Below are positions 6,750 to 60,283 of a DNA stretch of 64,000 nucleotides, in pieces. The DNA is from Elusimicrobiota bacterium. GTDB lineage: Bacteria; Elusimicrobiota; Elusimicrobia; UBA1565; UBA9628. Position 1 is the stretch's first letter. Every line of letters begins with the position of its first letter. The translations under genes were made by a program, and so were the position numbers. The stretch is from assembly GCA_030696455.1 (NCBI GenBank), contig JAUYSH010000023.1:3492-67491 (forward strand), in the 5' to 3' direction. A model generated the notes under the pieces. The model was given only the letters and a program-made list of their open reading frames with translations. It was not told the origin of the DNA and did not search any database.

Positions 6750-7229
6750 TTACGGCGCGCGGATCGCGACGACCTTGATCTTGTAGCGCAGAGGCTTGCC
6801 CGCGAGGGGATGGTTGAAGTCGAGGGCGGCCGAGCCGTTCTCGACCTTCAGGACGCGGCCTTGGGCCGACTTCCCCCCTTGGGCGCCGCCGACGAGGGCG
6901 CCGGGCGCGAGGTCCTTGGCCATGGCGCCGAACTTCTCGAGCGGGATCGCCTTGATCTTGTCCGGGTCGGACGGGCCGAAGCCCTGCATGGGAGTCAGCT
7001 CGACGACCTTTTCCTCGCCTTTCTTCATGCCGACGAGGGCCTCGTCGACCGGGCCGGGAAGGGCGCCCTCGCCCTGGATCACGATGAGCGGCTCGCGTCC
7101 GGCGTTGGACTCGATCAAGGCCCCGCCGGAGCTCAGCTCGTAATCGAGCTCGACCGTGGCACCCGGCGGCACGCGCGCCTCGCGCGAGCAGGCGGCCAGG
7201 AGCAGGACGGCCGCCAGGCCCCGCCTCAC
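6750..7229 (-). CDS. FKBP-type peptidyl-prolyl cis-trans isomerase (lipoprotein)
   Basis: 159 aa. Lipobox LLLAAC; FKBP/SlyD-like blocks VELDYEL, ALVGMKKGEEK and DFNHPLAGKPLRYKIKVV. GTG start overlaps the upstream stop (GTGA). Confidence 0.8.
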   Translation of the reverse strand: MRRGLAAVLLLAACSREARVPPGATVELDYELSSGGALIESNAGREPLIVIQGEGALPGPVDEALVGMKKGEEKVVELTPMQGFGPSDPDKIKAIPLEKFGAMAKDLAPGALVGGAQGGKSAQGRVLKVENGSAALDFNHPLAGKPLRYKIKVVAIRAP

Positions 7230-8299
7230 GCCTTGATGACGGCCAGGGGCGTGAAATCGCCGATGCTGCCGCCGCCCACGATGATCTCGTTCTCCTGGTC
7301 GATGACGCGGCGCAGGGCCTCGAGCCGGGACATCAGGTGGCGTCCGGGGCAGTCGGTGTTGTTGTAATGATTATGGGCTTCCAGGAAGCCCTTCTGGCCC
7401 GGATCCTTCTTGTACTTGATCGACAGGTAGGTCACGAGGCGGGTGAGGCTCTCGAGCTGCGCGGCGGTGGGCTGGACCTTATTGAAGTCGCCCATCATCG
7501 CCGCGCCGATGTTGCCCTCGTTGGAACTGCCCGCGTGCGCGCCGATGTACTCCGCGCGCCGTCCCTCGACCACGCGTCCGTCGCCGGCGATCAGGAAATG
7601 GTAGCCGATGTCGTCGAAGGCTTCCTTCCCCTCGCGGGCCCGGCCGACCATGTGATAATGCTGGATGTTCTTGACGGCCGAGGCGGTCTCCGCCTCGTTC
7701 ATCGGCTGCCTGCCCTGGGTGTGATGGACCGTCACGCGGTAGAGGCTATGGGAGGAGTTCGAGCCCCGGCGCGGCGCGGCGCGCCAGCCCATGCGGCTCA
7801 TGATCGGGGCCACGGTCGGGAACTTCTGCGCGATCTGGAACGAGGCGAAGCCGAGCAAGGTTTGGCCCGCGTCCTTGGCCGAGCCCGGGGTGGCCCCGCC
7901 GCGGGAATAATCGTAGTCGTCGGGCAGGGGCGGCACGACGCCGCCGAGGTCGGTGACGCGACGGCTCGCGTCGGCCGTATAAGGCAGGCGCTTGCCGCGC
8001 CCGCTCGGGGCGCTCGCGGGCGTATAGCCGACCAGGGTGACGCCGCCGCGAGTCCGGGCGCCGTCGAACATGGCGCTGGCGCCGTGGGCGGCGTCCTCCG
8101 GGGCGGCTGCGACGAAATCCGTGGCGGGCGCGTAGGCCATCAGGTTCTTGCCGGAGAGGCGACGGACCGGCGCGCCGTCCGCGGGCGGGGCGGACGGCCG
8201 ATAGGAACCGGTGGAAACGGCCGGGCTATTCTTCTCCTCGCAGCCGGTCAAGGCGCCGGCGGCGAGGACGAGGGCGACGAGAGGGAATAGGCGTCTCAT
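7226..8299 (-). CDS. N-acetylmuramoyl-L-alanine amidase (Amidase_2/PGRP domain) lipoprotein
   Basis: 357 aa. Lipobox ALTGC. The C-terminal domain has VTVHHTQG, GYHFLIAGDGRVVEGR, GAHAGSSNEGNIG and NNTDCPG. Confidence 0.8.
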   Translation of the reverse strand: MRRLFPLVALVLAAGALTGCEEKNSPAVSTGSYRPSAPPADGAPVRRLSGKNLMAYAPATDFVAAAPEDAAHGASAMFDGARTRGGVTLVGYTPASAPSGRGKRLPYTADASRRVTDLGGVVPPLPDDYDYSRGGATPGSAKDAGQTLLGFASFQIAQKFPTVAPIMSRMGWRAAPRRGSNSSHSLYRVTVHHTQGRQPMNEAETASAVKNIQHYHMVGRAREGKEAFDDIGYHFLIAGDGRVVEGRRAEYIGAHAGSSNEGNIGAAMMGDFNKVQPTAAQLESLTRLVTYLSIKYKKDPGQKGFLEAHNHYNNTDCPGRHLMSRLEALRRVIDQENEIIVGGGSIGDFTPLAVIKA

Positions 8300-56123: not shown

Positions 56124-57878
56124 TCAGCCGCAGTTCTTGTTGCCGCAGGCGATGCAGTTGCGGCGGCTGTTGTCGCCCGGGATGCATCCCGTGGGCGGCG
56201 AGCTTCGCGGCGGAGGCGCGTAATAGGCGGGCGGCGTAAAGCGGGCCGCTTTGTCCTGCAGCCAGCGGTCGTTGACGGACGCCGCTTGGCCCGAGCGGAT
56301 CGTCTCGATGAGCTCGTAGAAGAGCTTCCTCGGACATTCACCTAAACCAACCGCGAGTCGCGCGGCGACTACGTCATCCCGATCCCGGCTGAAGGAGTCG
56401 GGTGATGACTGCCGCAGCGGTTGGCTTCCCAGAGAGGCACGGGAGGGCGAAGCGCATGCCGCCGCCGCGAGATCCGCCAATCTCGGGAATGTTGAATTGA
56501 ATGGGATCGTGGCCTGGATCGGCTGCGGTGACGGCGATGGCTGACGGGCGAGCTGTGGTTCCGGAGGAGGTTGGACGGCAAGCGCTACCGGGGTGGCGAG
56601 CCGTCGTATTTCTTCCGCGTCCGCCCCTCGTCGCAAATTCATGTAAACTCTTACCGAGCAATCGTCGAAGCCCCAGGGTATCGCGGTTGCTGTCAGTAGA
56701 TTCTTCTGATAGGGAACGGGAAGGGCGTCGAGTTCAGCCTGGGCCACGCTTCCCGGATTCGAGCAAGATCTGATTGCCATGTCGGCATACGTCATTTTCA
56801 GGCGTTCGTCGTGTTCTCGTTCGGCGATTTTAGCTTGCGCGCGCGCCTGCTCGACGATGCCGTGGGCTTCTTGCTGCGCCTCGGCAAGAGATTTGCCTCT
56901 GACCCGCATGATCTCGGCTTCAATATTAGAGACTTCGATGTTTCTTAGCTCAGACGCCGGGCCGTTTAGGTATTTTTTCTTCTTAAGCAGATCGTAATAC
57001 TCCGTGCGTGCGTGACCGGTAACTCCAGGAAGCCTCCCGACATTCACCCGGACCACAGGCTTCGACGTGCGCCCGTGGGCATGACAATTTGATTTCGTCG
57101 CCCTATTTGCGCATAGGGAGTCCCACTTCGCCTTGAAATCGACCTTGGCCGCCGCCCTCAACGCCAATTGCATTCCCGCGTCAAGCACCACGGCGTCATT
57201 GTCGGCGCGCGCCCAAATGACCTCTGTCCCCGTTCTCGCGGCCAACATGTCCCATTTACTTCGATCGTTGTCCGGAACCCCCACAACGATCAGTCTTTTG
57301 GGAGGTCGGATTTCACCGTTGAGGATCGCGGCATAGATCAATTCGGTTCCCCAGCTGTGGGCAACAAGCTCGTTGATTTCCGCGCCACGGTAGGGCGCCA
57401 GTTTTTCCCTTGCCCGATCCGTCATTTCGCCGGCTGCAGCCGCCGCGAATTCCTGGATGTCGAGAGATGCATCTCGAATTATCTCTCCGGTTTTTACCGG
57501 GGGAAACAGCTTCTTAAGCACCTCATTAATCGGCCCGCCTAGGAGACCTCGCAACCCCGATTCTCTGACGGAGAATGATGGCTTTATGTATTTTTCGAAG
57601 AGGAACTCATCGTATTCCGCCGTATCGTCGCTGGACATTACGCCAGTGACCTCAACGCGAGCGTAGGTGAAGACCTCACCCTTTTTTGCCAGATTGTCCA
57701 GAGCATCTTGCTCATAATGAGCATTCTTGCGACGCAGCACTTCGAGCGTCGTGCGGCGAACTTCCGGGTCGAGTTCATACATCTCGGAAGCCAATTCCGC
57801 GTGAGGGTCGCCGGATGGGGCCGCGCGGAGACCATCCGCAGGAATCAAGCAGAGCGCGACAATCAGGATTCGTTTCAT
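56124..57878 (-). CDS. Secreted hypothetical protein with a putative serine-hydrolase elbow and Cys-rich tail (AT-rich island gene 2)
   Basis: 584 aa. Signal peptide MKRILIVALCLIPADGLRA. VAHSWGTE (about 57345-57374) resembles a GxSxG-type nucleophile elbow. A coiled-coil-like EAQQEAHGIVEQARAQAKIAERE follows. The C-terminus reads GCIPGDNSRRNCIACGNKNCG. Confidence 0.6.
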   Translation of the reverse strand: MKRILIVALCLIPADGLRAAPSGDPHAELASEMYELDPEVRRTTLEVLRRKNAHYEQDALDNLAKKGEVFTYARVEVTGVMSSDDTAEYDEFLFEKYIKPSFSVRESGLRGLLGGPINEVLKKLFPPVKTGEIIRDASLDIQEFAAAAAGEMTDRAREKLAPYRGAEINELVAHSWGTELIYAAILNGEIRPPKRLIVVGVPDNDRSKWDMLAARTGTEVIWARADNDAVVLDAGMQLALRAAAKVDFKAKWDSLCANRATKSNCHAHGRTSKPVVRVNVGRLPGVTGHARTEYYDLLKKKKYLNGPASELRNIEVSNIEAEIMRVRGKSLAEAQQEAHGIVEQARAQAKIAEREHDERLKMTYADMAIRSCSNPGSVAQAELDALPVPYQKNLLTATAIPWGFDDCSVRVYMNLRRGADAEEIRRLATPVALAVQPPPEPQLARQPSPSPQPIQATIPFNSTFPRLADLAAAACASPSRASLGSQPLRQSSPDSFSRDRDDVVAARLAVGLGECPRKLFYELIETIRSGQAASVNDRWLQDKAARFTPPAYYAPPPRSSPPTGCIPGDNSRRNCIACGNKNCG

Positions 57879-59116
57879 GCTCGCACCTTGTTCTGCAGAG
57901 CCGGGCCAGAGGCCAGATTCGATACCACCCCGGACGCCAGTCCCAAAACATAAAGATAGAGCGTCGCCTCGTACGCCATCTCGCCGGCAGGAATGGATCC
58001 ATCAGCGCGGATGCCGCGAATCAGGTCCAGCGCAAAAATCGCCGCCAGAACAAGAGTCCAGAGAAGGACACGCCTTGGTCGGGCGTTGCCGAAGCGCATG
58101 GCCGTCATCCAACTGACCCAGGGAATCGACAAGATTGGTATCAACTCCGCGGCTGATGAATTTCTCCAGATCACTCCGAACTGGACTGGGATATAAACAG
58201 AAAGATAGCCTGCTAAGGCCGCGAACGAAGTGATGCTGAGAAGGCTTCGGCCGAATAGCCGAGCGCGCCGCGCGCCATTCGAAGCCCCCGGCCAGAAGGC
58301 CAGGATCATCATTGAGGCGGTTAAGAAAGCCGCCGTGGCGCCGAGGCGGAATTGCTTGAAATTGGCCAGGAGGCCCTCAGAGGGCGCCGATTCGGGTTTG
58401 AACCAGAATCCCGCGACAGTTTTCTCTTGGACGGATAAAAGATGCTTTCGCAAAGACTCCGAGGCACGCTCCGTCGCGAGTTCGTAGTCGGAGGCGCGCA
58501 CGTTCCCTTGACCATCATCGCCTGCGGACCCGTCGCCAACCGTCAGAATATAGAATTCACCGGGCGATTCAGAGTAAGTCTGGAAGATCCGGTAAGGACT
58601 TGCGATTTCGACGTAAAACGTTCCTTGCGGCCAAGCGAATCGGTTTTTCTCTTCCACGATCTTGAATTGAAAACCGTTTCGCGTGAGTTCAGCCGACTTT
58701 GCTAGACGCATCTCTTCGAGACTTCCCAGGCCGCCCGGAACTGATTTCGGGATGACGACCAGTTCCATTAGCTCAAGCCGCGAAAAATCTTTTAGTTTAA
58801 AATCCGCGGGTTTAGGCTGAAACGGAACACGGCTTTGATCATCCCTAAACTTACGATGGAAGTACACCGCCTCCGCTTGCCCTCGCGACTCGACGAACGC
58901 CGTCCAGTAATATGGAATTTCGATGGTCTCGCCATACTTGCCTACGAACAATGAGATTTCCCCGAAGCCTCGAGGATGAGGAACCCCGACAACCTGGCCT
59001 GCTCGTGTTGAAGAGCCATCGACCGTAGTAGATGTCGGGAACTGAATCTCCCCCGCCGAAACACGCGAAGAAACGAGCGCGAGGCCCATCATCAGGATCA
59101 CAAAGCAGCGGTTCAT
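57875..59116 (-). CDS. Hypothetical membrane protein: signal peptide, ~230-aa exported domain, 4-5 TM helices (AT-rich island gene 1)
   Basis: 413 aa. GGAG Shine-Dalgarno before ATG 59116. ATGA overlap with the downstream gene. No family recognised. Confidence 0.6.
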   Translation of the reverse strand: MNRCFVILMMGLALVSSRVSAGEIQFPTSTTVDGSSTRAGQVVGVPHPRGFGEISLFVGKYGETIEIPYYWTAFVESRGQAEAVYFHRKFRDDQSRVPFQPKPADFKLKDFSRLELMELVVIPKSVPGGLGSLEEMRLAKSAELTRNGFQFKIVEEKNRFAWPQGTFYVEIASPYRIFQTYSESPGEFYILTVGDGSAGDDGQGNVRASDYELATERASESLRKHLLSVQEKTVAGFWFKPESAPSEGLLANFKQFRLGATAAFLTASMMILAFWPGASNGARRARLFGRSLLSITSFAALAGYLSVYIPVQFGVIWRNSSAAELIPILSIPWVSWMTAMRFGNARPRRVLLWTLVLAAIFALDLIRGIRADGSIPAGEMAYEATLYLYVLGLASGVVSNLASGPALQNKVRA

Positions 59117-59132
59117 GGTTCTCCAGACGGCG

Positions 59133-59166
59133 AAAAAAAAGAAGAAGCGAGTGCTTCGCTTCTTCT
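59133..59166 (-). terminator. Strong intrinsic terminator 16 nt upstream of the island start codon
   Basis: Minus strand reads agaagaagcga-agcac-tcgcttcttct followed by T8. Confidence 0.75.
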
Positions 59167-59354
59167 GGACTCATCCGGTTAAGGCCGGATCGTGGATACC
59201 CCGGGGCCGATCCCCCGAGCTACAGAGATTACTGAACCAAGGATACCCTAAGGCCGCACCCGCGACGAGGGTCATTCGCTCCAGGCCGGGGAAGGCCTAA
59301 CGGCCCACGTCCGCCAAATAAAAAGCGGGCCCGCTATCTCTCCGGCTCGACGGC

Positions 59355-60279
59355 TCAGCGGTTGAGCAGGACGATCTCGGTGCGCTGATCCGAGAACGGC
59401 GCCCGCGTCGCGTCCACGCCGATGTGGCGCGTGGCGACCATCAGCTCGCGCAGCAGCACGTCGAGGATCGCCTTGGCCTGCGCGTCGCCGAGCTCCTTGG
59501 TGTTGGCGAACACGCGCACCGAGATCGGGATGCCCGAGTACTTGCGCTTGATGAGGTCCGCGGCCGAGCGCAGCAGATCCGCGCCCCCCGGCGCCTGGAC
59601 CTCGGCGGCGCTCTTGCTCGTGCCGAACAAAGCGGCGGAGTCGAGGCTCAGGTGCAGGCCGGTGTCCTCCTGATGGACGATGCCCTTGAACATCAGAGGC
59701 TTGCCCACCGTCGTGCGCGGCGAGCCGTCGGGGCTCGTGAAGGTGTAGACGGCGGAGTACGACCGGCCCGCCCGCACCCACTCGCCCTGCTCGTTCTGCC
59801 CGGTCCACAGCAGTTCCTCGGGCGGGTTGCCCGAGCCCGAGTAGTTGTGGAACACGCGGCCTTCCTCGTCGGCGATGGTGAGGCTCCAGCCCCACTTGCG
59901 GCCTTCCTTGGCGTCGAGCTTGCCGCCGAGCAGGGACTCGAGCTGGTCTTTGATCTTGAAGCCGATGCCGGAGCGCTGGCTGAAGGTCGTGCGCCACGGC
60001 TGGATGACGCGGTCGTTCATCAAGGTCTCGGGATGGGTGCGGCGCCACGAGACGGTCAGAGGAGACACCGCGAGCAGCAGGTTCTCATCCGGCGCCAGCG
60101 ACGGGCGGATCGTCTCGAAGGGGTCCACCTCGATCTTGAGCGGAGGCTTCTGATCGTTGAGCTTGGACCCCGCACCCTCGGCCTTGATGACGACCTCGGC
60201 GGGCATGCCCCCCGACGGCGCGGCGGGAGCCTGAGCCGAGGCGTTGAGAGCTGACGTCAGGACGATGGCGATGAGTTTC
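59355..60279 (-). CDS. Periplasmic protein with a degenerate OmpA/Pal-like C-terminus
   Basis: Start trimmed to ATG 60279 (MKLIAIVLTSALNASA). The C-terminal ...DQRTEIVLLNR resembles the NRRVEI end of OmpA-like domains. It is the last gene of the Tol/Ton-like cluster. Confidence 0.55.
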
Positions 60280-60283
60280 ATGG

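Follow-up and report, generated by a model that had tools for sequence, protein, structure and literature searches.

A predicted 2'-dG-II riboswitch upstream of an exported hydrolase and its membrane partner in an Elusimicrobiota genome

Why would an exported hydrolase and a membrane-bound partner be encoded behind an aptamer predicted to bind 2'-deoxyguanosine (2'-dG)? This is the arrangement in a 64,000-nucleotide stretch of DNA from an Elusimicrobiota bacterium (contig JAUYSH010000023.1, hereafter the window), where a putative 2'-dG-II riboswitch lies upstream of a two-gene operon encoding a membrane protein (gene 1) and a divergent predicted hydrolase (gene 2), together referred to as the cassette. 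The 2'-dG-II class (RF03165) reportedly goes back to Weinberg et al. 2017, and to our knowledge its structure and biochemistry have been studied whereas its biology is poorly known. The 12 examples known to McCown et al. 2017 were all metagenomic and could not be assigned to a lineage (PMC5473149), and a later paper assigns examples to Bacteroidetes (PMC8872408). The structure was described by Matyjasik & Batey 2019; Kd values for 2'-dG run from 34 nM to 2.4 uM across the class, and guanosine is not rejected equally well by all members, the published ones differing about 70-fold in 2'-dG versus guanosine selectivity (PMC6847200). Control by transcription termination has been reported (PMC12342879), and the window aptamer, which also precedes an intrinsic terminator, agrees with it. 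Copies in the phylum that precede receiver-domain-like, PLD and MBL-fold (possibly ComEC) genes overlap the gene set already reported (PMC8872408). What differs from the class as published is that it is abundant here in Elusimicrobiota genomes, and stands before an unannotated family of exported enzymes. A literature search found no paper that joins Elusimicrobia, riboswitch and deoxyguanosine, although the 2017 supplement or the Rfam species lists could already show such hosts.

The pbuE (ydhL) adenine riboswitch is said to have the architecture of an ON switch, reportedly described by Mandal & Breaker 2004. As in pbuE, the 3' strand of aptamer helix P1 in the window leader doubles as the 5' arm of the terminator. 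Unlike in pbuE, the ligand class and the junction sequence differ, and the direction of the window switch is inferred from sequence only.

For the gene pair itself, two kinds of described system invite comparison. LipA and Lif of Pseudomonas and Burkholderia are a secreted lipase and its membrane-anchored, lipase-specific foldase, and the window likewise has, on predicted features, an operon of a Sec-exported, disulfide-containing α/β hydrolase and a periplasmic partner anchored in the inner membrane. However, Lif is all-helical with a single transmembrane (TM) anchor, gene 1 is predicted to combine a PsbP-like α/β domain with five TM helices, the partner comes first in the window, and in many relatives it is fused to the enzyme. 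Lif was considered as an identity for gene 1 and rejected, there being no Pfam or PDB sequence match and a predicted fold that is PsbP-like rather than helical. Polymorphic toxin-immunity systems, such as contact-dependent inhibition (CDI), Rhs and Tle-Tli of the type VI secretion system (T6SS) in the Zhang/Aravind classification, are resembled in the exchange of catalytic domains on a constant module, the adjacent cognate partners, the orphans, remnants and tandem arrays, and the deviant G+C. Unlike in those systems, the variable domain stands at the N-terminus and follows a Sec signal, the partner is encoded upstream, no dedicated secretion system is nearby, and fusions are common. The PsbP fold has also been reported for bacterial DcrB/DUF1795 proteins; compared with PsbP, gene 1 lacks sequence-level similarity and carries an additional C-terminal domain of five TM helices.

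Riboswitch, leader and regulon

The elements of the operon and its leader, in window coordinates, are as follows.

59160 to 59230, minus strand: 2'-dG-II purine-family riboswitch aptamer (Rfam RF03165), found with cmscan
59131 to 59166, minus strand: intrinsic terminator, an 11-bp stem (59166-59140) followed by a U-run, from a terminator scan and RNAfold
59231 to 59310, minus strand: conserved leader block upstream of the aptamer, with TGGGCC..AGGG, AAGACCCTCG and GTATCCTTA
56124 to 59116, minus strand: gene pair region, two open reading frames (ORFs) coupled by ATGA in a two-gene operon

The aptamer scores 76.7 bits (E 2.8e-19) over model positions 1-71 of 71, above the RF03165 gathering score of 60 bits across the full model. 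In the cmscan alignment, the conserved junction (J1/2, J2/3, J3/1) and L2-L3 loop nucleotides of the class are all present; the stretches that match the consensus are CUGUA, GGAU.GGC, GUAUCCACG, CC.UAAC and G.G.CCAG, and the only non-standard pairs, three in number, are all in outer P1. The terminator uses the final 7 nt of aptamer helix P1 (3' strand) as its 5' arm, and downstream of the terminator come a GGAG ribosome-binding site and the ATG of gene 1 on the same strand. A hairpin with a U-run that starts 5-7 nt inside P1 is found in 12 of the 16 leaders inspected. The overlap has the appearance of an expression platform coupled to the aptamer, and it implies an ON switch, because the terminator shares the P1 3' strand and a ligand-stabilised P1 should therefore disrupt it. 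The operon is thus predicted to be under the control of a 2'-dG-II riboswitch that binds 2'-dG. The riboswitch and terminator (59230-59131) lie beyond the region covered by a preliminary description of this DNA, in which neither the riboswitch nor the modular head-swapping discussed below appeared. Further upstream, the leader blocks are kept across 12 cassette loci (the window and 11 others), for which RNAalifold gave no consensus RNA structure; block 59231-59310 is possibly a promoter or a 5' leader element.

The same arrangement recurs elsewhere, the aptamer being directly upstream of the cassette in 14 related places (L001 twice, L002, L003, L005, L006, L007, L008, L010, L011, L013, L014, L016 and L019). 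In a sample of 301 genomes of the phylum, RF03165 has a match in 46, in 39 of them above the Rfam cut-off, with up to 12 copies per genome and a concentration in the window's own class. The catalytic head of gene 2 is found in 8 of the 301, and in 6 of the 13 genomes of the genus, at 1-3 copies; the riboswitch is present in 7 of the 8 hydrolase-positive genomes, several copies lying 0.1-3.7 kb upstream of the hydrolase. What else might this riboswitch control? About three quarters of 30 other downstream first genes encode exported proteins, as judged from N-termini read by eye. Regulon genes include a fused gene 1-hydrolase, three cassettes of a lipoprotein and an HExxH protein, a secreted PLD-like protein (PLDc_2), an MBL-fold protein, an Abhydrolase_6 protein and an FGE-sulfatase protein, and two aptamer copies precede apparent receiver-domain proteins, as read from sequence alone. 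The predicted regulon would consist mainly of exported hydrolases and uptake proteins. A riboswitch class hitherto represented mainly by metagenome fragments gains a host lineage whose genomes are nearly complete and hold many copies each, and a concrete candidate regulon of exported hydrolases and uptake proteins, which together make the purpose of 2'-dG sensing directly testable.

Some of the other riboswitch loci have organisations of their own. Behind the riboswitch at L036, L043, L049 and L056 come a small peptide with one TM segment (47-77 aa, the length in L056 being provisional) and an SBP_bac_5 solute-binding protein, and at L030, L032, L034 and L047 an exported peptide of 62-70 aa and then a radical-SAM enzyme; the latter four look like small modified-peptide operons under 2'-dG control. 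An exported protein with an FGE-sulfatase domain is encoded between the riboswitch and a fused gene 1-hydrolase in L010:4008-5657, L013:2665-4455 and L052:1-1446. In the window's own genome (G000), a second aptamer of 68.3 bits with a terminator is found on contig C131:54586-54656 (L028:4587-4657), at a contig end where the regulated gene is lost. An aptamer-like element with a terminator, at 54.6 bits below the cut-off, is on contig C48:28020-28087 (L027:2021-5095), and downstream of it are a gene for a secreted protein of 515 aa, in which PPRQQ repeats are combined with a Trp/Tyr-rich domain, and then a gene of the beta-lactamase family (serine hydrolase).

The two encoded proteins

Gene 2 has the following parts.

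56124 to 57878, minus strand: gene 2, 584 aa, by translation
aa 1-19: signal peptide
57821 to 56964, minus strand: hydrolase head, aa 20-305
56957 to 56760, minus strand: long single helix of 66 residues, aa 308-373
56759 to 56235, minus strand: Cys-bracketed helical C-module, aa 374-548
56234 to 56127, minus strand: Pro-rich linker and four-Cys tail GCIPGDNSRRNCIACGNKNCG, aa 549-584
57354 to 57356, minus strand: codon of Ser175, predicted to be the nucleophile of A-H-S-W-G and next to the end of beta-strand 168-174
57195 to 57197, minus strand: codon of Asp228, the predicted triad acid, after strand 219-224
57012 to 57014, minus strand: codon of His289, the predicted triad base, after strand 276-279

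To see what kind of enzyme gene 2 might encode, sequence conservation has to be read together with the AlphaFold2 (AF2) model, which has a pLDDT of 82.9 on a shallow alignment (25 and 21 sequences were used for the two proteins). Residues A173-H174-S175-W176-G177, after strand 168-174, have the small-x-nucleophile-x-small (Sm-x-Nu-x-Sm) pattern of a nucleophile elbow, and in the model topology S175, D228 and H289 come in the order nucleophile, acid, His after successive strands. In 13 divergent heads, some with as little as 29% identity, AHSWG, D228 and H289 never vary, AHSWG is at least 90% conserved in the 25 gene 2 homologues, and 22 positions, triad included, are invariant across head homologues of about 30% identity. 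Because the triad residues are invariant and in canonical order after successive strands, we treat gene 2 as a putative Ser175-Asp228-His289 α/β hydrolase that is highly divergent but catalytically competent, most likely of the esterase, lipase or thioesterase type. The best Foldseek matches of the head are 1ufo (TT1662), APT1, TesA, PahZ1 and YdeN-like proteins, and the top matches are mostly α/β hydrolases with a probability of up to 0.97, but the statistics are weak (best E 0.016, TM-score on target 0.37-0.47, 9-14% identity). The TT1662 esterase, APT1, TesA and PahZ1 have the Sm-x-Ser-x-Sm elbow and the Ser-Asp-His order in common with the gene 2 head. Unlike these small α/β hydrolases, gene 2 has an N-terminal extension of ~100 aa in the head, the cysteines C256 and C265, and a large C-terminal module. 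Conserved Cys pairs, of which C256/C265 is the pair in the head, are found in the gene 2 family and fit an oxidising compartment. A lipoprotein identity for gene 2 was rejected, as there is no lipobox and the Cys is missing in homologues.

The VAHSWGTE motif, coiled-coil segment (a long helix in the model), Pro-rich linker and Cys tail noted in the preliminary description are all present in gene 2, and its suspicion of a catalytic serine is made plausible by the invariant Ser-Asp-His and the α/β-hydrolase-like predicted fold. Its suggestion of a DUF900 (PF05990) or lipase-like family has to be dropped, since no such Pfam match appeared at E up to 10 in 13 heads. In the Pfam scan of these heads Abhydrolase_1 appeared in 2 of the 13 only (E about 0.09), and 13 C-modules gave noise only. 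Gene 2 has no match in Pfam, NCBIfam or PADLOC, and profile searches of PDB sequences, run with the complete proteins and separately with head, C-module and HExxH relatives, also gave no match. Both proteins indeed fall outside curated families, as had been stated.

Gene 1 has the following parts.

57875 to 59116, minus strand: gene 1, 413 aa, by translation
aa 1-21: signal peptide
58999 to 58517, minus strand: exported PsbP/Mog1-like domain, beta-rich, aa ~40-200
between exported domain and TM helices: linker helix
58351 to 57908, minus strand: five predicted TM helices, aa 256-403

The signal peptide, exported domain and TM helices proposed for gene 1 in the preliminary description were recovered, the number of predicted TM helices being five, and positively charged loops give an N-out/C-in topology. 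In the TM domain, Pro, Gly and Arg positions are conserved in and between the helices, and no conserved polar or catalytic residues were found. Profile searches of gene 1 against Pfam, NCBIfam, PADLOC and PDB sequences gave no match. With the AF2 model (pLDDT 79, shallow alignment), all of the top 12 Foldseek PDB matches of the exported domain are PsbP or CyanoP (probability 0.90-1.0, TM-score on target 0.37-0.50, E 4e-3 to 4e-2). The model thus predicts a PsbP/Mog1p-like fold for the exported domain, a claim made at the level of fold only. This fold generally serves as a protein-binding module.

A modular family with exchangeable parts

The gene pair is a member of an undescribed and unannotated modular protein family. 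Close homologues are rare: among 5.8 billion proteins gene 2 has 25 and gene 1 has 10, and the named ones are almost all from Elusimicrobia metagenome-assembled genomes (MAGs). When 1.84 billion representatives were searched with a profile, the family came to 241 members, defined as clusters at 50% identity, of which the best 150 representatives were classified together with direct homology-search matches, making 170 proteins. A hydrolase-head homologue outside Elusimicrobia, at ~6992-7741 of locus L009 (JBFXAT010000042.1), could reflect inter-phylum transfer or a binning error. The preliminary expectation that the two genes travel together holds well: in 12 of 14 distinct loci the hydrolase is directly preceded by, or fused to, a gene-1 homologue. 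Of the 150 best representatives 23 (15%) are fusions, and all 23 keep a signal-peptide-like junction with an AXA-type site; this junction segment could give the hydrolase its correct topology and could be cleaved.

Among the 170 classified proteins, 52 have the hydrolase head on the C-module, 37 have an HExxH head on the C-module and 23 are fusions. The alternative head is about 270 aa long, has an invariant HExxH and is attached to the same C-module. Each head keeps its own partner: gene 1 pairs with the hydrolase head, and a 278-aa lipoprotein, encoded upstream in place of gene 1, pairs with the HExxH head. The lipoprotein and gene 1 are not homologous by hhalign. Both kinds of cassette occur in tandem in L001, with one riboswitch each; in L019/L020 a riboswitch-lipoprotein-HExxH cassette occupies the slot equivalent to that of the window, beside a Pal-like/TonB/ExbD/ExbD/ExbB cluster; and in L016 an orphan copy of gene 1 lies upstream of a riboswitch-lipoprotein-HExxH cassette. 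The HExxH heads have faint, sub-threshold matches to toxin metallopeptidases, namely Tox-MPTase2 in 2 of 39 members (best E 0.0034, 17.6 bits versus a cut-off of 25) and Tox-MPTase4 in 1 of 39, and no recognised toxin domain was found in the hydrolase head. In a maximum-likelihood tree of the C-module (n=89), head type changes 19 times, and well-supported branches require no fewer than 12 of the changes. The window C-module is closest to an HExxH-type fragment (P0015), in a small clade that also contains P0003 and the HExxH-type P0092. There are three types of tail, each found with both types of head: a Cys loop such as DPCRDNGNIRCP, EALRQL.EIERRKRWGLRP, and PDHD.VW.RIGPIIGR. Interchangeable heads, cognate partners and a common C-module would amount to a new organisation of secreted enzymes or to a new polymorphic effector system.

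Base composition follows the same division into parts. The sharp G+C break that had been noticed by hand counts is borne out: region 56124-59116 has 57.4% G+C against a genome mean of 67.7% (3-kb windows, sd 3.4%), giving z = -3.0 and a place among the lowest 2% of 7,207 genome windows, and the assembly (4.0 Mb, 147 contigs) contains ~32 regions that do not exceed 60%. Synonymous sites carry the dip, third-position G+C (GC3) being 0.58-0.68 in the gene pair and 0.91-0.95 in ppdK, the Pal-like gene, TonB, ExbD and ExbB. The dip is uneven: gene 1 and codons 1-305 of gene 2 have 54-56%, and the remaining 279 codons of gene 2 have 62%. Likewise in the fetched loci, only the exchangeable part, made up of partner and head, is low in G+C (51-64%, mostly 54-60%), the C-modules having mostly 57-67% and the flanks 66-68%.

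How are partner and head exchanged? Direct or inverted repeats bordering the island were searched for and none were found, there is no mobile-element signature, and viral contigs searched with the hydrolase head and the aptamer core gave no match. Because there are no flanking repeats and no phage links, the exchange of partner plus head would be best explained by homologous recombination, for which the conserved leader and the C-module may, we infer, serve as anchors. The preliminary description had proposed a horizontally acquired cassette. The atypical composition stands, and the cassette is accessory and recombining, but it bears no mobile-element marks and is not a one-off import, because its homologues (L001-L004, and other loci by domain) share a G+C deficit of ~10 points and the named ones are almost all from Elusimicrobia MAGs. 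The cassette is better viewed as an accessory element that apparently recombines within one lineage (6/13 genus genomes).

Candidate functions and the flanking genes

In the light of these features, it is somewhat probable that the cassette specifies a 2'-dG-induced, exported scavenging enzyme with a cognate periplasmic partner. We favour a scavenging role because the rest of the regulon looks nutritional, with PLD, MBL and oligopeptide-binding proteins and other hydrolases. Transcription would start upstream of the 2'-dG-II aptamer. When ligand is absent, the 11-bp terminator would form with the P1 3' strand and transcription would end 16-25 nt short of gene 1; binding of 2'-deoxyguanosine, or of a closely related guanine nucleoside, would stabilise P1 and cost the terminator 7 of its 11 pairs. 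Read-through would then allow genes 1 and 2 to be co-transcribed, and co-translated via the ATGA overlap, and Sec would export both proteins. Gene 1 would be held in the inner membrane by its five TM helices with the PsbP-like protein-binding domain in the periplasm, where that domain may bind the hydrolase head as a cognate chaperone or as a self-protecting inhibitor. The disulfide-stabilised C-module and the tail would send the enzyme onward, to the cell surface or outside the cell. The 2'-dG regulon could thereby answer the DNA breakdown products of lysed cells, and partner and catalytic head would be exchanged by recombination, the alternative being a lipoprotein and an HExxH metallopeptidase head on the same C-module. 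A more speculative extension, which we put forward only tentatively, is that 2'-deoxyguanosine is an Elusimicrobiota-wide cue for lysed cells or free DNA, to which a regulon of as many as a dozen operons per genome would respond with exported enzymes, and that leader and C-module anchor the swapping of partner and head cassettes (Ser hydrolase or Zn peptidase) between paralogues and genomes, in an unrecognised recombining effector system.

Several observations weigh against the scavenging enzyme and partner so described. One genome (G144) has three hydrolase copies and no riboswitch, in L006 gene 1 is missing and the hydrolase comes straight after the riboswitch, and the copy in the Vicinamibacterales MAG (L009) has neither gene 1 nor riboswitch. 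For neither protein is the Foldseek E-value strong (hydrolase 0.016, PsbP 0.004), the alignments are shallow, and the scavenging role draws its support solely from the composition of the regulon. Moreover, the cognate partners, the L016 orphan, the remnant on contig C18 described below, the L001 tandem and the multiple paralogues fit a toxin-immunity system equally well. In such a riboswitch-gated polymorphic cassette, gene 2 would be an antibacterial lipase or esterase that attacks the envelope and the HExxH head a protease toxin; gene 1, or the lipoprotein, would neutralise the toxin in the producer's periplasm, the C-module and tail would deliver it to targets, and 2'-dG would be a danger signal from lysed kin. 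We regard this as rather unlikely, although the genetics of the cassette suit it almost as well as they suit scavenging: each head type has its own upstream partner, at least 12 head swaps have occurred on a constant module, the three interchangeable tails are common to both head types, an orphan gene 1 precedes a lipoprotein-HExxH cassette in L016, cassettes are in tandem in L001 and the window's genome has a truncated, frameshifted remnant. The 1-3 divergent copies per genome, the patchy presence within the genus, the low G+C of the variable part and the faint Tox-MPTase2/Tox-MPTase4 matches point the same way, and the cleavable-looking junction of the fusions would still give separate products. 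However, no genes of type V, VI or VII secretion systems (T5SS, T6SS, T7SS) or other delivery genes are nearby, an N-terminal variable domain behind a Sec signal is the reverse of classical polymorphic toxins, the hydrolase is without gene 1 in L006 and L009, and 15% of representatives are partner-effector fusions. The remaining regulon looks nutritional (oligopeptide-binding proteins, PLD, MBL), and most periplasmic immunity proteins are simpler than a protein with an anchor of five TM helices.

Could the pair instead serve the envelope of its own cell? A housekeeping or conditional envelope-remodelling role, in which the membrane protein presents or transports a lipid-linked or envelope substrate that the periplasmic hydrolase deacylates or cleaves, would tie the cassette to the TonB/ExbBD/Pal-like cluster. 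In the window, L001 and L019/L020 a Ton/Tol-like cluster adjoins the pair; gene 1 crosses the membrane several times and keeps Pro, Gly and Arg positions within the TM helices and in the stretches that join them, and the fusions tether the enzyme to the membrane. Yet the pair is missing from 7 of the 13 genus genomes, the Ton neighbourhood is not retained in L002 and L003, an unrelated lipoprotein and metallopeptidase can fill the same slot, and the TM domain lacks conserved polar or catalytic residues; atypical codon usage and a nucleoside riboswitch are also hard to reconcile with a core envelope function. Because the distribution is patchy and the content of the slot interchangeable, we consider envelope remodelling improbable. 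That the cassette is a decaying or functionless foreign insert, its low G+C marking recent acquisition, is very improbable indeed. The low G+C and GC3 and the degraded paralogue on C18 would suit such an insert, but both ORFs are intact, 22 positions including the triad are invariant at about 30% identity, the riboswitch is conserved and full-scoring and has its terminator, and the G+C deficit persists in homologues of 29-56% identity from other genomes and so does not mark a recent one-off import.

Turning to the surroundings, the coupled genes of 413 and 584 aa overlap in GCATGA, and the flanks named in the preliminary description, ppdK and the Ton cluster, are as given there. On one side is ppdK (Pfam); on the other is a Pal-like ORF followed by a cluster of TonB, ExbD, ExbD, ExbB and a TPR protein. 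The T6SS, type II secretion system (T2SS) or defence surroundings that had been raised do not adjoin the gene pair. A PADLOC scan of both proteins gave no match and the neighbours are not defence genes, and membership of a defence island was rejected on both counts. The fetched loci contain no secretion-system domains; what neighbours the cassette is ppdK, the Ton cluster, a 225-aa protein and a Ser/Thr kinase.

The Pal-like ORF that separates the cassette from TonB in the window is 308 aa long (59355-60281, minus strand) and has no Pfam match, and L001 and L019 have genes of 317-320 aa in an equivalent position, the likeness being one of position and length. On contig C18 of the window's own genome, C18:20645-24880 (L015:3645-7881), a 670-aa Ser/Thr kinase with a C-terminal kinase domain is divergent from a 232-aa exported protein, and beside this pair is the 5'-truncated, frameshifted gene-2 paralogue, which has lost AHSWG, keeps the C-module and Cys tail and has no riboswitch. 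A kinase and ~225-aa pair borders intact cassettes in L001, L002, L003/4, L008 and L019/20, which could be a functional link or merely lineage synteny. When window and L001 are lined up on the ppdK and Ton-cluster flanks that they have in common, the window cassette is seen to be inverted, and L001 has in this slot a kinase, the 225-aa gene, small ORFs and a second HExxH cassette that are absent from the window. The comparison of window and L001 points to a rearrangement at the ppdK/Ton-cluster slot.

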